This document shows positions 1,485 through 61,171 of a DNA stretch of 64,000 nucleotides, piece after piece. The stretch is taken from NCBI GenBank assembly GCA_003482855.1, contig DMXO01000005.1, positions 227,719-291,718 on the forward strand, given 5' to 3'. Each line of letters opens with the position of its first letter. The first letter of the stretch is position 1. The stretch comes from Candidatus Magasanikiibacteriota bacterium (GTDB lineage Bacteria; Patescibacteriota; Patescibacteriia; Magasanikbacterales; UBA922). Under the pieces are notes generated by a model. It made no database searches. It was not told where the DNA came from and worked only from the letters and a program-made list of their open reading frames with translations. The translations under genes were made by a program, and so were the position numbers.

Positions 1485-2642
1485 ATGAAAAAAATTCTTA
1501 TCACCACACTTGAATATCCGCCCCAAATAGGTGGTATTGCGACGTATGTGCATCAAATGGCTCAAGCTCTTGATACAGAAAAAGTAGTGGTTCTTGCTCC
1601 AAAAATGAAAGGGGATAAGGAGTGGGATGAACAAGTGAAATACAAAGTGATTCGCAAAAATCAATTATTTCCCAAATTTATTTGGCCTCGCTGGATAAAA
1701 GTTATTTTTCAAATACGCAAAATTGTAAAGCAAGAGGGGATTGAAATAATTCTGATTAATCATGTATTACCTATTGGCTATGCCGGATGGTTTATCAAAA
1801 AAATGTTCAAAGTTCCTTATATTATTGTTTCTCATGGTACTGACATACTCATGGGCACACGCAATGCATGGAAGACGAACATGATGAAAAAAGTTGTCAC
1901 TCTAGCTGAACAGATTATTTTCAATAGTGAGTCGTTGAGACGACATTTTCTTCGTGTACTTCCTGAATTTGAGAACAAATCAACGGTTTCATATCCATGT
2001 CCGGACAAAGATTTACTCATACCCCCACTGTCAGAAAAAGTAGATAGTTTGCGTCGTATGCTCGCGCTTGAGGGCAAAAAAGTAATGCTCACCGTGTCGC
2101 GTATGGATGAAGGCAAGGGATTCCCTCATTTGGTACGTGCTTTGCCTGCCATATTGAAGAGTGAGCCCCATGCTGTGTGGGTGATTATAGGAGATGGCCC
2201 CAAACGAAAGGAAATTTTGGATGATATACAAAAACATAGTTTACAAAATGTTGTCCGCTATATCGGAGAAGTACCCCATCAAGATCTAAAAACGTATTAT
2301 TACTTGGCAGACTTGTTTGTTTTATTTACCCATCCTGATGAAGGTAGAGAAGAAGGTCTTGGATTAGTATTTTTGGAAGCAGCGGCAGCTGGGTTGCCTG
2401 TTGTGGCAGGCAAGAGTGGCGGCGTAGAGGAGGCAGTAGTGCACACGCAGACAGGTGTTATTATAGATATAAGGCAACAAGCTATGGCTATGAGTGATTC
2501 TATAGTCGCATTGTTGCACAATGGAGATTATGCCTCTCAACTAGGGCAACAGGCACGAGCGCGTATCGAGTCTGACTTTAGGTGGGATCATCAATTGCAA
2601 AAGCTAGAGCCGTGGATTGGTAATATCAATTTTCAACAATAA
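1485..2642 (+). CDS. glycosyltransferase family 4 (GT-B fold)
   Basis: 385 aa. C-terminal EGFGLVFLEAAAAGLPVVA motif (EX7E-type GT1/GT4 signature). 5 nt after the flippase stop. Confidence 0.75.
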   Translation: MKKILITTLEYPPQIGGIATYVHQMAQALDTEKVVVLAPKMKGDKEWDEQVKYKVIRKNQLFPKFIWPRWIKVIFQIRKIVKQEGIEIILINHVLPIGYAGWFIKKMFKVPYIIVSHGTDILMGTRNAWKTNMMKKVVTLAEQIIFNSESLRRHFLRVLPEFENKSTVSYPCPDKDLLIPPLSEKVDSLRRMLALEGKKVMLTVSRMDEGKGFPHLVRALPAILKSEPHAVWVIIGDGPKRKEILDDIQKHSLQNVVRYIGEVPHQDLKTYYYLADLFVLFTHPDEGREEGLGLVFLEAAAAGLPVVAGKSGGVEEAVVHTQTGVIIDIRQQAMAMSDSIVALLHNGDYASQLGQQARARIESDFRWDHQLQKLEPWIGNINFQQ

Positions 2643-3265
2643 TGTATATGAAAGATATCCAACTTAAAGAGCACGAGCGAATCGTAGATGAAGTACGACA
2701 ATATGGACTGACTACTATATGGTCATGGATAGGAGGTATATTGTTGTTATTTTTGGCTGCTTTTTTTATGTTTTGGCTATTTCAACATGCGTGGTGGGGC
2801 CAGAGTTTATTTGGGTTGTTAGTTTTTTTTGGTTTTTTTGTTATGCTACGTACATATATGCTGTGGAAGAAAAATGTCTTTTTTATCACGACCCATCGGC
2901 TCATAGATATAGAACAACAGGGTTTTTTTCATCGGGTTGTATCTGAAATTCCGTATGACCAGATAGAGGATGTATCAGGGAAGGTGAGTGGAATATGCGG
3001 AACTATATTTCGATATGGGGATGTGCATATACAGACAGGGAATGGCAAAATAAAAATTATTGTTCCATACATAAAACGTCCTCTCCAGCTCCAACAACAG
3101 ATCAATGAAATGCGTGAACGCTATATATCAAAATACTCACATGATTTTAGTGGGGATGTCGCAGAAGTGGTTATTGATAAATTATACGAACTCGAATTAT
3201 CAGATTTGAGGCGTGTTCAGAAAGTATTAGACAAGAGAATTGAAAAATTGAATATTGAGAAGTAG
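2642..3265 (+). CDS. membrane protein with bacterial PH-like domain (YdbT/bPH_2-like), hypothetical
   Basis: 207 aa. Two TM helices near the N-terminus followed by a soluble domain, coiled-coil tail. Start overlaps the GT4 stop. Confidence 0.4.
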   Translation: MYMKDIQLKEHERIVDEVRQYGLTTIWSWIGGILLLFLAAFFMFWLFQHAWWGQSLFGLLVFFGFFVMLRTYMLWKKNVFFITTHRLIDIEQQGFFHRVVSEIPYDQIEDVSGKVSGICGTIFRYGDVHIQTGNGKIKIIVPYIKRPLQLQQQINEMRERYISKYSHDFSGDVAEVVIDKLYELELSDLRRVQKVLDKRIEKLNIEK

Positions 3266-3282
3266 TTAAATATAAGCACTGT

Positions 3283-3349
3283 CACGGCGCTTGAAATTCC
3301 GTCGCTCGCCCTAGATGCAAGTAAACTTGCGCCTGTGGGCTCGCTAGGA
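3283..3349. repeat. short copy of a dispersed GC-rich element family (related to 10934-11105 and 12791-12940)
   Basis: Shares tccgtcgctcgcc..ctag..tgcaagtaaa..gggctcgct with element A (10997-11060). An exact 10-mer tgcaagtaaa is shared. Lies in the 3' UTR between gene 2642-3265 and the bidirectional terminator. Confidence 0.4.
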
Positions 3350-3354
3350 ATTAT

Positions 3355-3698
3355 AAAAAATCCACCCCGTATATTCAGGGTGGTTTTTATATTGGAGTGG
3401 CATCGTTTGGAAGACGGCGGAGTACGATGCTCACTCCGTTTCCGGGTTTGTGTTTGCCGAATCACGCGATCTCCTCGCTGAGGTGGTAGACGTGAATTTG
3501 GCGATGATCGTGCGTTCCCCCGAGGATACCGGTCCACTCGAGGGTGTGCCTGTCCATGAATTCCCTGACCGAGATGGGGTCGTTTGACCTGATCTCGGTT
3601 GAGATTTCGTGGCACGCACCACAACCGCAACACCTTACCCGGAACCTGAGGTGGTAGACAAACCACCCTTTCATGAAACCCTCCGAAGATATTTGCCA
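3355..3698 (-). ncRNA. structured standalone ncRNA (~344 nt), class unresolved; weak RNase P RNA-like features
   Basis: No ORF on the sense strand. GC ~55% against ~35% background. Upstream TTGACA(3732-3727)-15nt-TATAGT(3711-3706) on the - strand, with intrinsic terminator CCACCC..GGGUGG+U6 at 3355-3388. Long-range helix UUCCGGGU/ACCCGGAA (RNA positions 55-62/252-259) and a second helix 80-85/184-189. Local hairpins GGUGGU-UUGUCU-ACCACC and CCGAGAU..AUCUCGG. 3' pseudoknot (loop GCAUCGU pairs ACGAUGC). 14-nt direct repeat GUCUACCACCUCAG x2. The motif ACAAACCCGG resembles RNase P CR-V, but the J3/4 GGAAAG motif is absent. Confidence 0.55.
3362..3388. terminator. bidirectional intrinsic terminator
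   Basis: ccaccc-cgtatattca-gggtgg hairpin flanked by an A6 run (3355-3360) and a T5 run (3384-3388). Ends both the + gene 2642-3265 and the - strand ncRNA. Confidence 0.7.
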
Positions 3699-3705
3699 TA
3701 TCAAT

Positions 3706-3732
3706 ACTATAGACAAATAGAAGATATGTCAA
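3706..3732 (-). promoter_or_regulatory. sigma70-like promoter for the - strand ncRNA
   Basis: Minus strand reads TTGACA-tatcttctatttgtc-TATAGT. Predicted TSS near 3698. Confidence 0.5.
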
Positions 3733-3759
3733 ATATTATTTTTGTGATATACTAATGTC

Positions 3760-4185
3760 ATGAAGCACGACCAACAATCATCCGTGAGGCGATTTTTTGC
3801 ATCGCGCACTTTTTTAATTATTGCACTTGCTGTCATGACAGTATTTGCTTTTGGATTTGCACGCGCTTATTACCAGGATTACAAAGTCAAAAGAGAAATA
3901 CGACAGCTTGAAGACGAACTTTCAAGACTTGAAAAAAGAAAGCTAGAGTCAGTAGAAATTTTGAAGTATGTGACGAGCAATACCTATGTAGAGGATGCTG
4001 CCCGCACAGAGCTCAATATGCAAGCTCCTGGGGAGCATGTAATTTTTCTTCAAGATACACAGGATAACAGCGCTATACAAGATAGTGTGGGAGAGGTTGC
4101 CATAGAAGATGGACAAAATATGCCAAATCCGGTAAAATGGTTCTATTATTTTATTCACAAACAGCCCCTCGAAGAGGAGCATTAA
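3760..4185 (+). CDS. septum formation initiator family protein (FtsB/DivIC-like)
   Basis: 141 aa. N-terminal TM helix, then a coiled coil (REIRQLEDELSRLEKRKLE) and a conserved beta region (YVEDAARTELNMQAPGEHVI). Confidence 0.6.
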   Translation: MKHDQQSSVRRFFASRTFLIIALAVMTVFAFGFARAYYQDYKVKREIRQLEDELSRLEKRKLESVEILKYVTSNTYVEDAARTELNMQAPGEHVIFLQDTQDNSAIQDSVGEVAIEDGQNMPNPVKWFYYFIHKQPLEEEH

Positions 4186-5985: not shown

Positions 5986-6009
5986 ATTTTATGATATACT
6001 GTTGATATT

Positions 6010-12972: not shown

Positions 12973-12977
12973 TTTGG

Positions 12978-13050
12978 TGATCCGGCTGGGGATCGAACCC
13001 AGGACCATCAGCTTAAAAGGCTGTTGCTCTACCAGCTGAGCTACCGGACC
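12978..13050 (-). tRNA. tRNA-Lys (anticodon TTT), CCA encoded (to 12975)
   Basis: - strand GGTCCGG TA GCTC AGCTGGTA GAGC A ACAGC CTTTTAA GCTGA TGGTC CTGGG TTCGATC CCCAG CCGGATC A CCA. G2:U71 wobble and A27:A43 mismatch. Confidence 0.8.
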
Positions 13051-58528: not shown

Positions 58529-58993
58529 ATGATGATGGAAGATACACAATACATGAGTCAAGATAAATTGGACCAGCTCAAAGCAGAGTACAGTGATCTT
58601 AAATTAGAAAAAATATCTGCTATAGCCAAACGTATTGATGAAGCAAGACAGCTGGGTGATTTGTCTGAAAATGCTGAGTATCATGCCGCCCGAGACGAAA
58701 TGGCATGGGCGCAAAGCAGAGTAAAAGAGCTAGAACATATTATTGATAGCGCTGAAATTGTTGCAAATACAGGGAGCAAAATAATACAAATAGGATCTTC
58801 CATCCGCGTAAAGGCTAACAAGGTAGAAAAGGAATATACTATTGTAGGAGCCCAGGAAGCCAATCCACTAGCTGGAAAAATATCAAATGAATCACCCATC
58901 GGTAGTGCTTTTTTGGGCAAAAGTAAGGGAGATAAAGTACAAGTGCGACTACCGGCAGGGGTTCAGGAATACAAAATTTTGGATGTAAAATAA
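58529..58993 (+). CDS. greA: transcription elongation factor GreA
   Basis: 154 aa. Coiled-coil N-domain with GDLSENAEYHAARDE, FKBP-like C-domain. Confidence 0.85.
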   Translation: MMMEDTQYMSQDKLDQLKAEYSDLKLEKISAIAKRIDEARQLGDLSENAEYHAARDEMAWAQSRVKELEHIIDSAEIVANTGSKIIQIGSSIRVKANKVEKEYTIVGAQEANPLAGKISNESPIGSAFLGKSKGDKVQVRLPAGVQEYKILDVK

Positions 58994-59011: not shown

Positions 59012-59042
59012 CAACCCCCGTAAGGGGGTATTTGTATTTTTA
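59012..59042 (+). terminator. intrinsic terminator after greA
   Basis: ACCCCC-gtaa-GGGGGT followed by TTTGTATTTTT. Confidence 0.65.
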
Positions 59043-59095: not shown

Positions 59096-61171
59096 ATGAC
59101 TAATACAACAGAAGTCAATATAAATGATGAACGAAAAATTAGACTAAAAAAAATAGAAGACCTAAAGACAATGGGGATCAATCCTTATCCAGCTCATTGC
59201 GATACACACGAAACTATCAAGCACGCGCTAAATCTACCACAAGGATCTGCTGTCAAAACAGTAGGGCGCCTCATGACAAAACGTGAAATGGGCAAATTAA
59301 CTTTCTGCCATTTACAAGATGAGACAGATAAAATTCAAATTGCTTTTAAACAGGATGAATTGGGGTCAGACAATTATAAATTATTCACTAAAAAAATTGA
59401 TACGGGCGATATTATCTTTGTGGATGGCGAACGATTTGTCACTCATAAAGGAGAGGAATCTATACTTGTCAAAAAATGGATGATTCTTTCAAAGGCATTA
59501 CTGCCATTGCCAGATAAATTTCATGGTTTGCAAAAAGAAGAATTGCGTCTGCGAAAAAGATATCTTGATTTACTTTTGAGTCCAGAAATTAGAGACATAT
59601 TTTACAAAAAAGCGAAATTTTGGGACGTCACAAGAAGCTTTATGAAAGCAAAAGGATTTTTTGAAGTTGAAACCCCTTACCTTGAGACGACGACTGGAGG
59701 GGCAGAAGCGACTCCATTTGCAACACATCACAATGACTTCGACTTAGATGTCTATCTTCGTATTTCAGTAGGAGAACTTTGGCAAAAACGTTTGATGGCA
59801 GCTGGATTTGAAAAGACTTTTGAAATAGGAAGAGTTTTCCGTAATGAAGGATCTAGCCCTGACCACTTACAGGAATTTACTAACATGGAATTTTATTGGG
59901 CGTATGCCAATTATAATGACGGCATGAAATTAGCTCAAGAATTATACCAACAGATTGCCACAGAGGTATTTGGGACTACAAAATTTAAAACGAAAGAATA
60001 CGAATATAATTTAGCAGGAGAATGGCCTCGCATTGATTATACCGACGAAATTAAAAAGCAAACAGGAATTGATACCACACATGCAGATGAAGAGGAAATG
60101 AAAGAAAAGCTTCAAAAATTACATGTATCCTACGAGGGAGATAACAGAGAACGTCTCACAGACACATTATGGAAATACTGCAGACGCAATATTGCCGGTC
60201 CAGCTTTTCTGATTAACCATCCAAAACTTATCTCGCCACTTGCAAAAGCGCGCCCAGAAAATCTGCTAACTACTGAACGTTTTCAAATTATCATTGCGGG
60301 TAGTGAAGTAGGTAATGGATATTCAGAACTTAACGATCCTATAGATCAGCGTGCACGCTTTGAGTTGCAGCAAAAACTTATTGAAAAAGGGGATAGTGAA
60401 GCTATGATGCCTGATTGGGAATTTGTAGAAATGCTTGAGCATGGCATGCCACCAACATGCGGATTTGGTTTTGGCGAACGCTTATTTTCTTTCATGATAA
60501 ATAAACCTATACGTGAATCTGTTTTGTTTCCTCTTATGAAGCCAGAACAAAGTAATCCATCAATCCAAGCAAAGAAACAATATGGAAATCAGCATCTTCC
60601 GATTACACGTGATGAAGCGTTGTCATTTGTGAAAGAATATACCAAAAAAGAAGCAAATCTCAACCACTACCTCGAATCAGAGGCAGTCATGAGACATCTT
60701 GCTAGACGCCTCAGTGAAAATGAATCATATTGGGGTATGCTCGGACTTTTGCACGATATCGATTGGGAAATTACAGAGCATGATCCTACAGATCATCTTA
60801 CTGAAGCTCCAAATATTCTCAAAGCAAAAGGATTTAGTGAAGATTTTATACAAATTATTTTGTCGCATGGATATGGATTTGATTGTGCAGGATTGAAAGA
60901 CAAAAAAAGAACTGAAAAAATAGAGCATGCGCTTGCCTGCAGTGAAACTGTTACTGGTCTTATCTATGCCATTGCACTTATGCGTCCTGACAAAATAAAA
61001 AATTTAGAAATTTCCTCGGTAAAAAAGAAAATGAAAGACAAAAAATTTGCAGCAAATGTTGATAGGGATGTAATAAAAGAATGTGAGAAACTAGGTCTCA
61101 CCATTGATGAATTTTTACAAATTGCTATTAATGCCATGCGCGAAATATCTCATAATATTGGATTGATATAA
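59096..61171 (+). CDS. lysS: lysine--tRNA ligase (class II) fused to a C-terminal HD-domain phosphohydrolase (YqeK-like)
   Basis: 691 aa. Residues 1-~490 are a complete LysRS ending ...GFGFGERLFSFMINKPIRESVLFP. Residues ~500-691 carry an HD motif (GLLHDIDW) plus downstream His/Asp residues. Confidence 0.8.
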   Translation: MTNTTEVNINDERKIRLKKIEDLKTMGINPYPAHCDTHETIKHALNLPQGSAVKTVGRLMTKREMGKLTFCHLQDETDKIQIAFKQDELGSDNYKLFTKKIDTGDIIFVDGERFVTHKGEESILVKKWMILSKALLPLPDKFHGLQKEELRLRKRYLDLLLSPEIRDIFYKKAKFWDVTRSFMKAKGFFEVETPYLETTTGGAEATPFATHHNDFDLDVYLRISVGELWQKRLMAAGFEKTFEIGRVFRNEGSSPDHLQEFTNMEFYWAYANYNDGMKLAQELYQQIATEVFGTTKFKTKEYEYNLAGEWPRIDYTDEIKKQTGIDTTHADEEEMKEKLQKLHVSYEGDNRERLTDTLWKYCRRNIAGPAFLINHPKLISPLAKARPENLLTTERFQIIIAGSEVGNGYSELNDPIDQRARFELQQKLIEKGDSEAMMPDWEFVEMLEHGMPPTCGFGFGERLFSFMINKPIRESVLFPLMKPEQSNPSIQAKKQYGNQHLPITRDEALSFVKEYTKKEANLNHYLESEAVMRHLARRLSENESYWGMLGLLHDIDWEITEHDPTDHLTEAPNILKAKGFSEDFIQIILSHGYGFDCAGLKDKKRTEKIEHALACSETVTGLIYAIALMRPDKIKNLEISSVKKKMKDKKFAANVDRDVIKECEKLGLTIDEFLQIAINAMREISHNIGLI

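Follow-up and report, generated by a model that had tools for sequence, protein, structure and literature searches.

Introduction

Class II lysyl-tRNA synthetase (LysRS) is a major producer of diadenosine tetraphosphate (Ap4A): ATP or another nucleoside triphosphate (NTP) attacks lysyl-AMP to give Ap4A and its relatives, and structures of LysRS and LysU with bound Ap4A exist (PMC10148737). The symmetrical Ap4A hydrolase of the Firmicutes, YqeK (COG1713 / TIGR00488), is an HD-superfamily protein of ~190 amino acids (aa) reported mainly from Firmicutes, Thermotoga and Deinococcus-Thermus (PMC10148737). YqeK is the phosphatase example of the dinuclear HD site, of which the six-residue pattern H..HD..H..H..D is diagnostic, and its ligands are H21, H50, D51, H83, H109 and D127 (PMC8177086); a conserved Arg three residues before the first His (R-F-N-H) and a conserved, catalytic Lys three residues after the HD (HDYAK, HDxxK) both contact phosphate (PMC8177086, PMC11857287). 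PgpH and the HD-GYP proteins carry the pattern H..HD..H..HH..D, act on cyclic dinucleotides and are joined to other accessory domains (PMC8177086). An HD-fold domain is also found within an aminoacyl-tRNA synthetase, the bacterial (alpha-beta)2 glycyl-tRNA synthetase (GlyRS), where it is non-catalytic and rigidly integrated in the tRNA-binding beta subunit; in the Escherichia coli enzyme the HD doublet is replaced by S393-K394 and the domain serves tRNA acceptor-arm binding (PMC8464048). In LysX (MprF-LysRS), the class II LysRS core is the platform for an extra enzymatic domain, an N-terminal membrane domain for lipid lysylation. Here we analyse a 64,000-nucleotide stretch (the window) of contig DMXO01000005.1 from a Candidatus Magasanikiibacteriota bacterium (assembly GCA_003482855.1, positions 227,719 to 291,718), in which a gene that we call lysS-HD encodes a class II LysRS continued by an HD-superfamily module.

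Neither the LysRS-HD fusion nor the HD family to which its module belongs was found described in a search of 8 million full texts, which also gave no relevant literature on COG2316, DUF2000 or Ap4A in connection with Patescibacteria. The architecture itself is already public, including in RefSeq isolates, but is named only 'lysine--tRNA ligase'; thousands of database entries under this name conceal a second, predicted enzyme.

A complete class II LysRS runs in frame into an HD module

The lysS-HD open reading frame (ORF) has no internal stop and its 691-aa product consists of a synthetase, a linker and an all-helical C-terminal module (Table 1). The synthetase, residues 1-484, is a complete class II LysRS that scores 513.3 bits with the NCBIfam lysS model PRK00484 (cut-off 468) and 453.4 bits with TIGR00499 (cut-off 427.6), in both cases over residues 9-484, and its active-site residues R249, E251, H257, E404 and R473 are invariant in an alignment of 56 fused homologues. 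In the same alignment, the linker shows no consensus residue and its length differs between homologues. The Pfam HD model PF01966 matches residues 522-596 with 24.9 bits in the whole protein and 27.6 bits in the module alone (cut-off 22), and the HDIG model TIGR00277 gives 30.1-33.4 bits (cut-off 27.6). Using a 37-sequence alignment, AlphaFold2 modelled the last 201 residues as all-helical with a predicted local distance difference test score (pLDDT) of 93.4 and a predicted template modelling score (pTM) of 0.90. For the full-length protein the mean pLDDT was 90.2 and the pTM 0.71, with values below 50 only at the interdomain residues 487-497, which fits two well-folded units on a disordered tether. 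The NCBIfam LysX model aligns to the LysRS core only.

The first-pass annotation of this DNA had claimed that a complete class II LysRS continues in frame into an HD domain, and the ORF and the Pfam and NCBIfam models agree on this. The string GLLHDIDW that it quoted lies at residues 550-557 (nucleotides 60743-60766), and the HD fold of the C-terminal domain is borne out both by the two models scoring above their cut-offs and by the meaningful Foldseek matches, which are all HD proteins. A tRNA-Lys(UUU) gene is present elsewhere in the window (12975-13050). From its sequence, lysS-HD likely encodes the housekeeping class II lysyl-tRNA synthetase of the organism with a tethered HD domain.

The fusion recurs in CPR bacteria, DPANN archaea and Atopobiaceae

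Homologues were counted among the 120 best database matches to the lysS-HD protein. LysRS and HD were found in one chain in 72 of them, 43 were plain LysRS (~490 aa) and five carried a C-terminal DUF2000 domain. Plain and fused enzymes are interleaved: identity to the query core is 68-80% for the plain enzymes and 48-82% for the fused ones, whose HD parts are 39-78% identical to the module. In close relatives the C-terminus of LysRS bears nothing, HD or DUF2000 at an otherwise constant locus. The fusion was found in bacteria of the Candidate Phyla Radiation (CPR), in DPANN archaea and in cultured Atopobiaceae.

As LysRS and HD are separate genes in many DPANN genomes, and as a stop codon parts them in one relative (locus L003), we considered that a sequencing or assembly error had joined lysS to a separate downstream HD gene. 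The identical protein (P0001, 'lysine--tRNA ligase' of Candidatus Magasanikbacteria RIFOXYC2_FULL_39_8) is however recorded on 11 contigs, the 72 full-length fused homologues are independent, and RefSeq isolates of Atopobiaceae carry the fusion; the stop in L003 is a lone in-frame TAA within the conserved first HD helix. An artefact of this kind is thus extremely improbable and was rejected. The junction, for which a frameshift had been a concern, therefore stands, and the same fusion does occur in related genomes.

In L003, a metagenome-assembled genome (MAG; GCA_035092285.1), the TAA at 5995-6003 (LPISRE*ALAFIKEH) interrupts a lysS-HD fusion that is intact in all other respects. A nonsense mutation, a sequencing error or read-through may account for it, and its position inside the first HD helix indicates that the fusion is the ancestral state there. 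It leads gene callers to report a false 'standalone' HD protein, P0121 (76% identity), which was rejected as the closest standalone relative since it is an interrupted fusion and gives no evidence for a free CPR gene.

The module groups with an HD family distinct from YqeK

The module is 57-65% identical, over 94-97% of its length, to genuinely standalone proteins of ~190-195 aa, and 42 columns are invariant in the family alignment. In the databases these relatives go under the names 'HD family phosphohydrolase', 'HDIG domain-containing metalloprotein' and 'predicted hydrolase (HD superfamily)', the last being the wording of COG2316. Full-length homology and shared invariant residues make them the module's own family, from which the query differs by its covalent union with LysRS; distant members have no lysS link. 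A family profile searched against 1.84 billion cluster representatives retrieved 3,584 clusters at E<=1e-3, of which 1,359 reached E<=1e-10. By these comparisons the module is assigned to a distinct, uncharacterised and highly conserved HD family of ~190 aa, not to YqeK.

Conservation of the putative metal ligands was assessed in 71 fused modules, 119 free proteins, ~137 diverse representatives and 120 Atopobiaceae proteins. H524, H553, D554, D556, H567 and H591 are invariant over these sets and position 617 is acidic, being D in 92/137 and E in 42/137 of the diverse representatives and D in 120/120 Atopobiaceae proteins. Every fused copy examined retains the six-ligand H..HD..H..H..D/E site, and this retention makes a catalytic role plausible. 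The position of W557 is W, Y or F across the wider family. Towards the C-terminus, K644, K645 (K/R), K647, F651 and R657 are invariant or nearly so in all groups, as part of a basic patch that likely contacts phosphate or nucleic acid; G621 is also conserved.

These residues bear on the possibility that the module is a regulator or sensor without hydrolytic activity, whose metal site binds a nucleotide or a metal and tunes LysRS activity or Ap4A output. Inactive HD binders are known (Bd1817, GlyRS-beta; PMC8177086, PMC8464048), and the query's subfamily has Glu in place of Asp as its last ligand. The strict maintenance of six ligands over deep divergence speaks against such a role, the D/E interchange at the last position fits catalysis, and free-standing homologues have no partner to regulate; we regard a sensor as very unlikely.

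The first-pass annotation had called the module YqeK-like and asked for a comparison with HD and YqeK profiles. The HD half of this assignment holds; the YqeK half does not, as TIGR00488 gave no match at E<=1 with either the whole protein or the module (NCBIfam). Three residues before the first His the family has D, N, H or L, and three residues after the HD it has W, Y or F, in place of the Arg and Lys of YqeK. No match was obtained when the module alone was searched against the sequences of the Protein Data Bank (PDB). With the family profile, two YqeK structures came out best, non-significantly (E 0.15 and 0.24) and over 55-60 residues of the N-terminal H..HD part only. Foldseek found no solved structure at E<=1e-3; its best matches (template modelling (TM) score 0.40-0.54) were the GlyRS-beta HD domain, 2pq7 (an unnamed HD hydrolase), PgpH, YqeK, YpgQ and HD-GYP, with YqeK at 0.40-0.48, structurally no closer than other HD proteins. 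YqeK and the module have in common the superfamily, the size, the six dinuclear-type ligands, an identical spacing of 29 residues from the first His to the HD (PMC8177086), and a proposed module substrate that is a product of LysRS. They differ in the spacing of the ligands after the HD, in the C-terminal half, where the module has its own K-rich motif, and in the partner gene, which is lysS and not nadD, with the module fused to an aminoacyl-tRNA synthetase. Membership of YqeK was therefore rejected on the silent model and the missing marker residues. With its six ligands kept and the Arg and Lys of YqeK missing, the module is very probably a working dinuclear hydrolase whose predicted substrate pocket is built differently from that of YqeK.

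The HD family is a genomic partner of class II lysS

Across GTDB species representatives, 374 loci encoding relatives were detected, and neighbourhoods were judged for the best 80, which come from a few CPR bacteria, then mostly from DPANN archaea, plus some Asgard and Bathyarchaeia. Thirteen of the 80 loci hold a LysRS-HD fusion (six of them in archaeal MAGs); in 16 a class II lysS ends less than 150 nucleotides (nt) upstream on the same strand, and in another 16 lysS lies upstream on the same strand across a gap of 100-3400 nt. No lysS occurs within 4 kb in 28 loci, and the flank was too short to judge in seven. The HD family gene is thus fused to or downstream of class II lysS in 45/73 informative loci; by chance, adjacency of a single-copy gene in a ~1 Mb genome would be expected in well under 1%. 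The genes in the gaps are unrelated insertions, and a conserved third gene between lysS and HD in DPANN was rejected, the candidates being VapBC-like genes, small membrane proteins and transposase remnants.

The linkage spans five divergent LysRS clusters, and neighbour-joining trees call for no fewer than 4-6 switches between the fused and the unfused state. Distances between the LysRS sequences correlate with those between the HD parts (Mantel r 0.41, p~0.001). With a p-distance of 0.37 against 0.48 for the LysRS core, the HD part is the better conserved of the two. Of the 150 best family representatives, 19 exceed 300 aa, and 14 of these are LysRS fusions whose cores share only 36-48% identity with the query core. 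In CPR, DPANN and Atopobiaceae, the family accompanies class II lysS as its dedicated genomic partner, through fusion or from a position immediately downstream. Combined, the fusions and the neighbourhoods point to a functional partnership specifically with class II LysRS.

Such a pattern has to be set against the proposal that the module is a general hydrolase for nucleotide housekeeping or second messengers, tied to lysS by regulation (co-expression with translation) and not by mechanism. Candidate substrates would be pApA or c-di-AMP (cf. PgpH), c-di-GMP or pGpG, (p)ppGpp, or non-canonical (d)NTPs. PgpH, which shares the dinuclear-type ligands, gives the best TM score of all matches (0.52-0.54; 4s1b/4s1c); the family is widespread, with 3,584 clusters, and often lacks a lysS link; PAS-GGDEF-HD (P0271), HAD-HD and HD-FtsY variants exist; and the window has a nucleotide-sanitising RdgB/Ham1-NUDIX neighbour. 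PgpH is nevertheless only 12% identical to the module, with Foldseek E-values of at least 0.05, and differs, as do the HD-GYP proteins, in ligand pattern, substrates and accessory domains; the module has a single His in 'SHG' where phosphodiesterase-type HD enzymes carry HH (PMC8177086). Co-expression alone cannot explain at least four independent fusions to LysRS in three distant lineages, nor does it sit well with LysRS being the partner in 14/19 long architectures. A general hydrolase is accordingly an unlikely account of the module.

Three observations were made on the surveyed archaeal loci. Firstly, the class II LysRS of DPANN falls into at least two lineages. One (L019, L029, L031, L046, L057, L059-L061, L066, L074, L075, L078 and L080) is 53-57% identical to the query, a CPR enzyme, and clusters with it, and the other (L022, L023, L030, L034 and others) is ~40% identical. 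The clustering of DPANN with CPR enzymes suggests that lysS crossed between the domains along with its HD partner, and a RadA/Rad51-type gene supports the archaeal origin of L019. Secondly, an acylphosphatase-like ORF of ~90 aa occurs on the strand of the HD gene in 22/80 loci (e.g. L029 1849-2229, L082 2217-2492), upstream of the HD gene in the examples checked. Aminoacyl-adenylates are acyl-phosphates; the recurrence of this ORF may be mere shared synteny. Thirdly, ComEA-like, TrmY-like and Hjc-like genes are other recurrent DPANN neighbours and also look like shared synteny.

LysRS-HD in cultured Atopobiaceae

For Parafannyhessea umbonata, the RefSeq LysRS (WP_078687421.1, 752 aa) represents a divergent fused cluster, and in an isolate genome the fused gene lies in the usual greA-lysS context. 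All of the 120 best Atopobiaceae homologues carry the module with ~119-131 bits to the family profile and every ligand kept; the carriers include Olsenella phocaeensis, O. massiliensis, Tractidigestivibacter scatoligenes and T. montrealensis. Their modules reach 18-19 bits with the Pfam HD model, under its threshold, which explains their annotation as plain LysRS. Cultured hosts in Olsenella, Parafannyhessea and Tractidigestivibacter make LysRS-HD experimentally tractable.

Some P. umbonata strains encode a longer protein, LysRS-HD-tRNA_bind, of 928-936 aa (P0463, P0477 and relatives), with a Trbp111/EMAPII-like domain (PF01588, E 1.7e-24). Other strains of the species have the 752-aa form lacking tRNA_bind.

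Proposed function of the tethered module

The most economical hypothesis is that the module degrades Ap4A, which is both a by-product and an alarmone, and the linkage to lysS strengthens it. LysRS would form lysyl-AMP, whose attack by ATP or other NTPs would yield Ap4A, Ap3A and Ap4N; the tethered HD module would hydrolyse the phosphoanhydrides of these products beside their source, so that aminoacylation could proceed with no build-up of dinucleoside polyphosphates in small-genome organisms that possibly lack ApaH or YqeK. We infer the catalytic activity, the substrate and any channelling, and give a probability of about 0.4 to hydrolysis by the module of LysRS-made dinucleoside polyphosphates. 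This estimate is supported by the ligand motif and 29-residue spacing common with an Ap4A hydrolase and by the fact that the best PDB profile matches, though non-significant, are YqeK structures. Other partners of the family (GGDEF, HAD, FtsY) also handle nucleotides.

Several points weigh against Ap4A clearance and keep the estimate from being higher. The phosphate-contacting Arg and Lys of YqeK are missing from the whole family, so that the pocket is unlike that of YqeK, and the likeness in fold to YqeK is no better than that to the HD domain of GlyRS-beta or to PgpH. Other aminoacyl-tRNA synthetases make Ap4A too, yet the linkage is only with LysRS. Within 4 kb, lysS is missing in 28/73 informative loci, it is no neighbour of the distant free members from Syntrophobacterales, Marinimicrobia and Dojkabacteria, and many DPANN loci share wider synteny, which renders the linkage counts phylogenetically non-independent. 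The co-fused DUF2000 and tRNA_bind domains point to tRNA, and the very high conservation of the HD part suits a macromolecular partner.

These last points lead to a serious though less probable rival, in which the module is directed to tRNA and would bind or process tRNA(Lys). A 2',3'-cyclic or 3'-phosphate might be taken off damaged tRNA 3' ends or cleaved anticodon loops ahead of charging, or the module might help to place the acceptor arm, a role that its counterpart in GlyRS-beta has. That acceptor-arm binder (PMC8464048) is the top Foldseek match (E. coli GlyRS beta, 7eiv, E 0.019, TM 0.45). A tRNA target would agree with the LysRS-HD-tRNA_bind proteins of P. umbonata strains, with the occurrence of LysRS-DUF2000-HD and of LysRS-DUF2000 followed by an HD gene (DUF2000/2GAX being classed with the peptidyl-tRNA hydrolase II fold), with weak matches of the family to the C-terminal portion of an archaeal Trm56 model (PRK12703) and to RNase Y, and with the invariant Lys/Arg-rich patch; the lower p-distance of the HD part than of the LysRS core is as expected of a macromolecular interface. 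On the other side, the fold-match E-values are all weak, tRNA_bind is a common add-on that aids aminoacylation by itself, and there is no known reason why tRNA(Lys) alone should need such a module. The GlyRS-beta domain has lost the doublet that the module keeps among its six ligands, which makes simple binding insufficient as an explanation (PMC8464048), and the flexible 20-aa tether and the free-standing versions disfavour fixed positioning of a tRNA. With doublet and ligands intact, a disordered linker and occurrence as a free protein, a non-catalytic domain of the GlyRS-beta type was rejected.

It is also conceivable, though decidedly unlikely, that the HD module is not an Ap4A hydrolase but a new kind of catalytic domain coupled to the synthetase, with a LysRS-bound intermediate or tRNA(Lys) as its target. 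In that case it might hydrolyse mis-activated aminoacyl-adenylates or heal tRNA(Lys) ends bearing a 2',3'-cyclic phosphate or 3'-phosphate, and LysRS-HD might have passed as one cassette between CPR bacteria and DPANN archaea.

Whichever substrate applies, an uncharacterised HD family of 3,584 clusters gains a testable context in its dedicated class II LysRS partner. If the module hydrolyses Ap4A or related dinucleoside polyphosphates (NpnN), it would be a third route, HD-type or otherwise unrelated, to their clearance, would close the clearance gap in DPANN archaea, CPR bacteria and Atopobiaceae, and would provide a first instance of the main Ap4A synthase and its hydrolase in one polypeptide; it would also inform the debate over Ap4A as a signal or as a damage metabolite. 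An action on tRNA or adenylates would be a new type of accessory catalysis for an aminoacyl-tRNA synthetase, and phosphohydrolytic quality control at the adenylate or at the tRNA(Lys) end would be unprecedented among these enzymes.

Genomic neighbourhood and other architectures

The features of lysS-HD and of its surroundings are listed in Table 1.

Table 1. Features of the lysS-HD locus, with positions in the window and residue numbers of the lysS-HD protein unless another product is named.
Feature	Position	Strand	Remarks
lysS-HD gene, whole	59096..61171	+	691 codons plus stop; ATG start; single ORF
LysRS anticodon-binding OB fold, residues 53-131	59252..59488	+	PF01336, E 1.3e-11; beta strands 52-132 in the model
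Class II catalytic core tRNA-synt_2, residues 147-481	59534..60538	+	PF00152, E 8.7e-70
Motif 2 FRNE, residues 248-251	59837-59848	+	inside the class II core
Flexible linker QSNPSIQAKKQYGNQHLPIT, residues 485-504	60548..60607	+	pLDDT <50 at residues 487-497
HD-superfamily phosphohydrolase module (predicted), residues 505-691 (187 aa), all-helical	60608..61168	+	PF01966 and TIGR00277 above cut-off
H524, first metal-ligand His	60665..60667	+	conserved in 71 fused, 119 standalone, 134/137 diverse and 120 Atopobiaceae proteins
H553-D554-I-D556-W557, HD doublet plus family signature D and W	60752..60766	+	H, D and D invariant
H567, additional His ligand	60794..60796	+	invariant
S590-H591-G592, with H591 as additional His ligand	60863..60871	+	H invariant
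E617, last acidic ligand position	60944..60946	+	E in all close relatives
Basic patch S641-VKKKMKDK-649 ... F651 ... R657	61016..61066	+	conserved in all groups
greA, conserved upstream neighbour	58529..58993	+	ORF
Terminator-like hairpin, greA to lysS-HD	~59015-59041		CCCCC-GTAA-GGGGG then T run, read from sequence
Cytidylyl/adenylyltransferase-like gene, 139 aa	61183..61602	+	11 nt past the lysS-HD stop; PF01467, E 1.2e-18
RdgB/Ham1 NTP pyrophosphatase (residues 6-192 of its product)-MutT-like NUDIX (residues 203-321), 347 aa	61610-62653	+	

The order greA-lysS is kept in CPR loci and in Parafannyhessea, and the strong hairpin between the two genes indicates that lysS-HD probably opens a transcription unit of its own. 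The 139-aa nucleotidyltransferase gene follows lysS in all CPR relatives examined, irrespective of the C-terminus of LysRS. Its best NCBIfam models are RfaE domain II and TagD; matches to NadD models, at E 1e-3 to 4e-3, stay far under cut-off, and a synteny of the nadD-yqeK kind was rejected. Two genes past lysS-HD, the RdgB-NUDIX fusion unites two nucleotide-sanitising enzymes in one chain and occupies the same position in the CPR relatives L003, L005 and L007-L011. In close relatives the locus comprises MreB/C, PBP2, GreA, LysRS, the 139-aa nucleotidyltransferase, RdgB-NUDIX and SerRS.

LysRS-DUF2000 (PF09391) replaces LysRS-HD at the sister Magasanikbacteria locus (L005 5001-6884, P0093), with further examples in P0029, P0034, P0035 and P0076. 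DUF2000 fills the same C-terminal slot with another fold, its match in the PDB being 2GAX (Atu0240, E 5e-4). P0255 is a LysRS-DUF2000-HD protein and in L083 (~2054-3982) a LysRS-DUF2000 gene is directly followed by a free HD gene, so that the two add-ons co-occur as well as alternate.

The HD module also stands at the N-terminus of an SRP54-type GTPase (FtsY-like; SRP54_N + SRP54) in several archaeal MAGs (L033 3824-5542, L044 3785-5497, L077 3692-5533, P0241), a second translation-linked partner. Other architectures in the family are LysRS-HAD_2-HD (P0308, 918 aa), PAS-PAS-GGDEF-HD (P0271, 656 aa), AMMECR1 (AmmeMemoRadiSam protein A)-HD (P0386, 370 aa) and a beta-propeller-HD protein (P0333, 555 aa).

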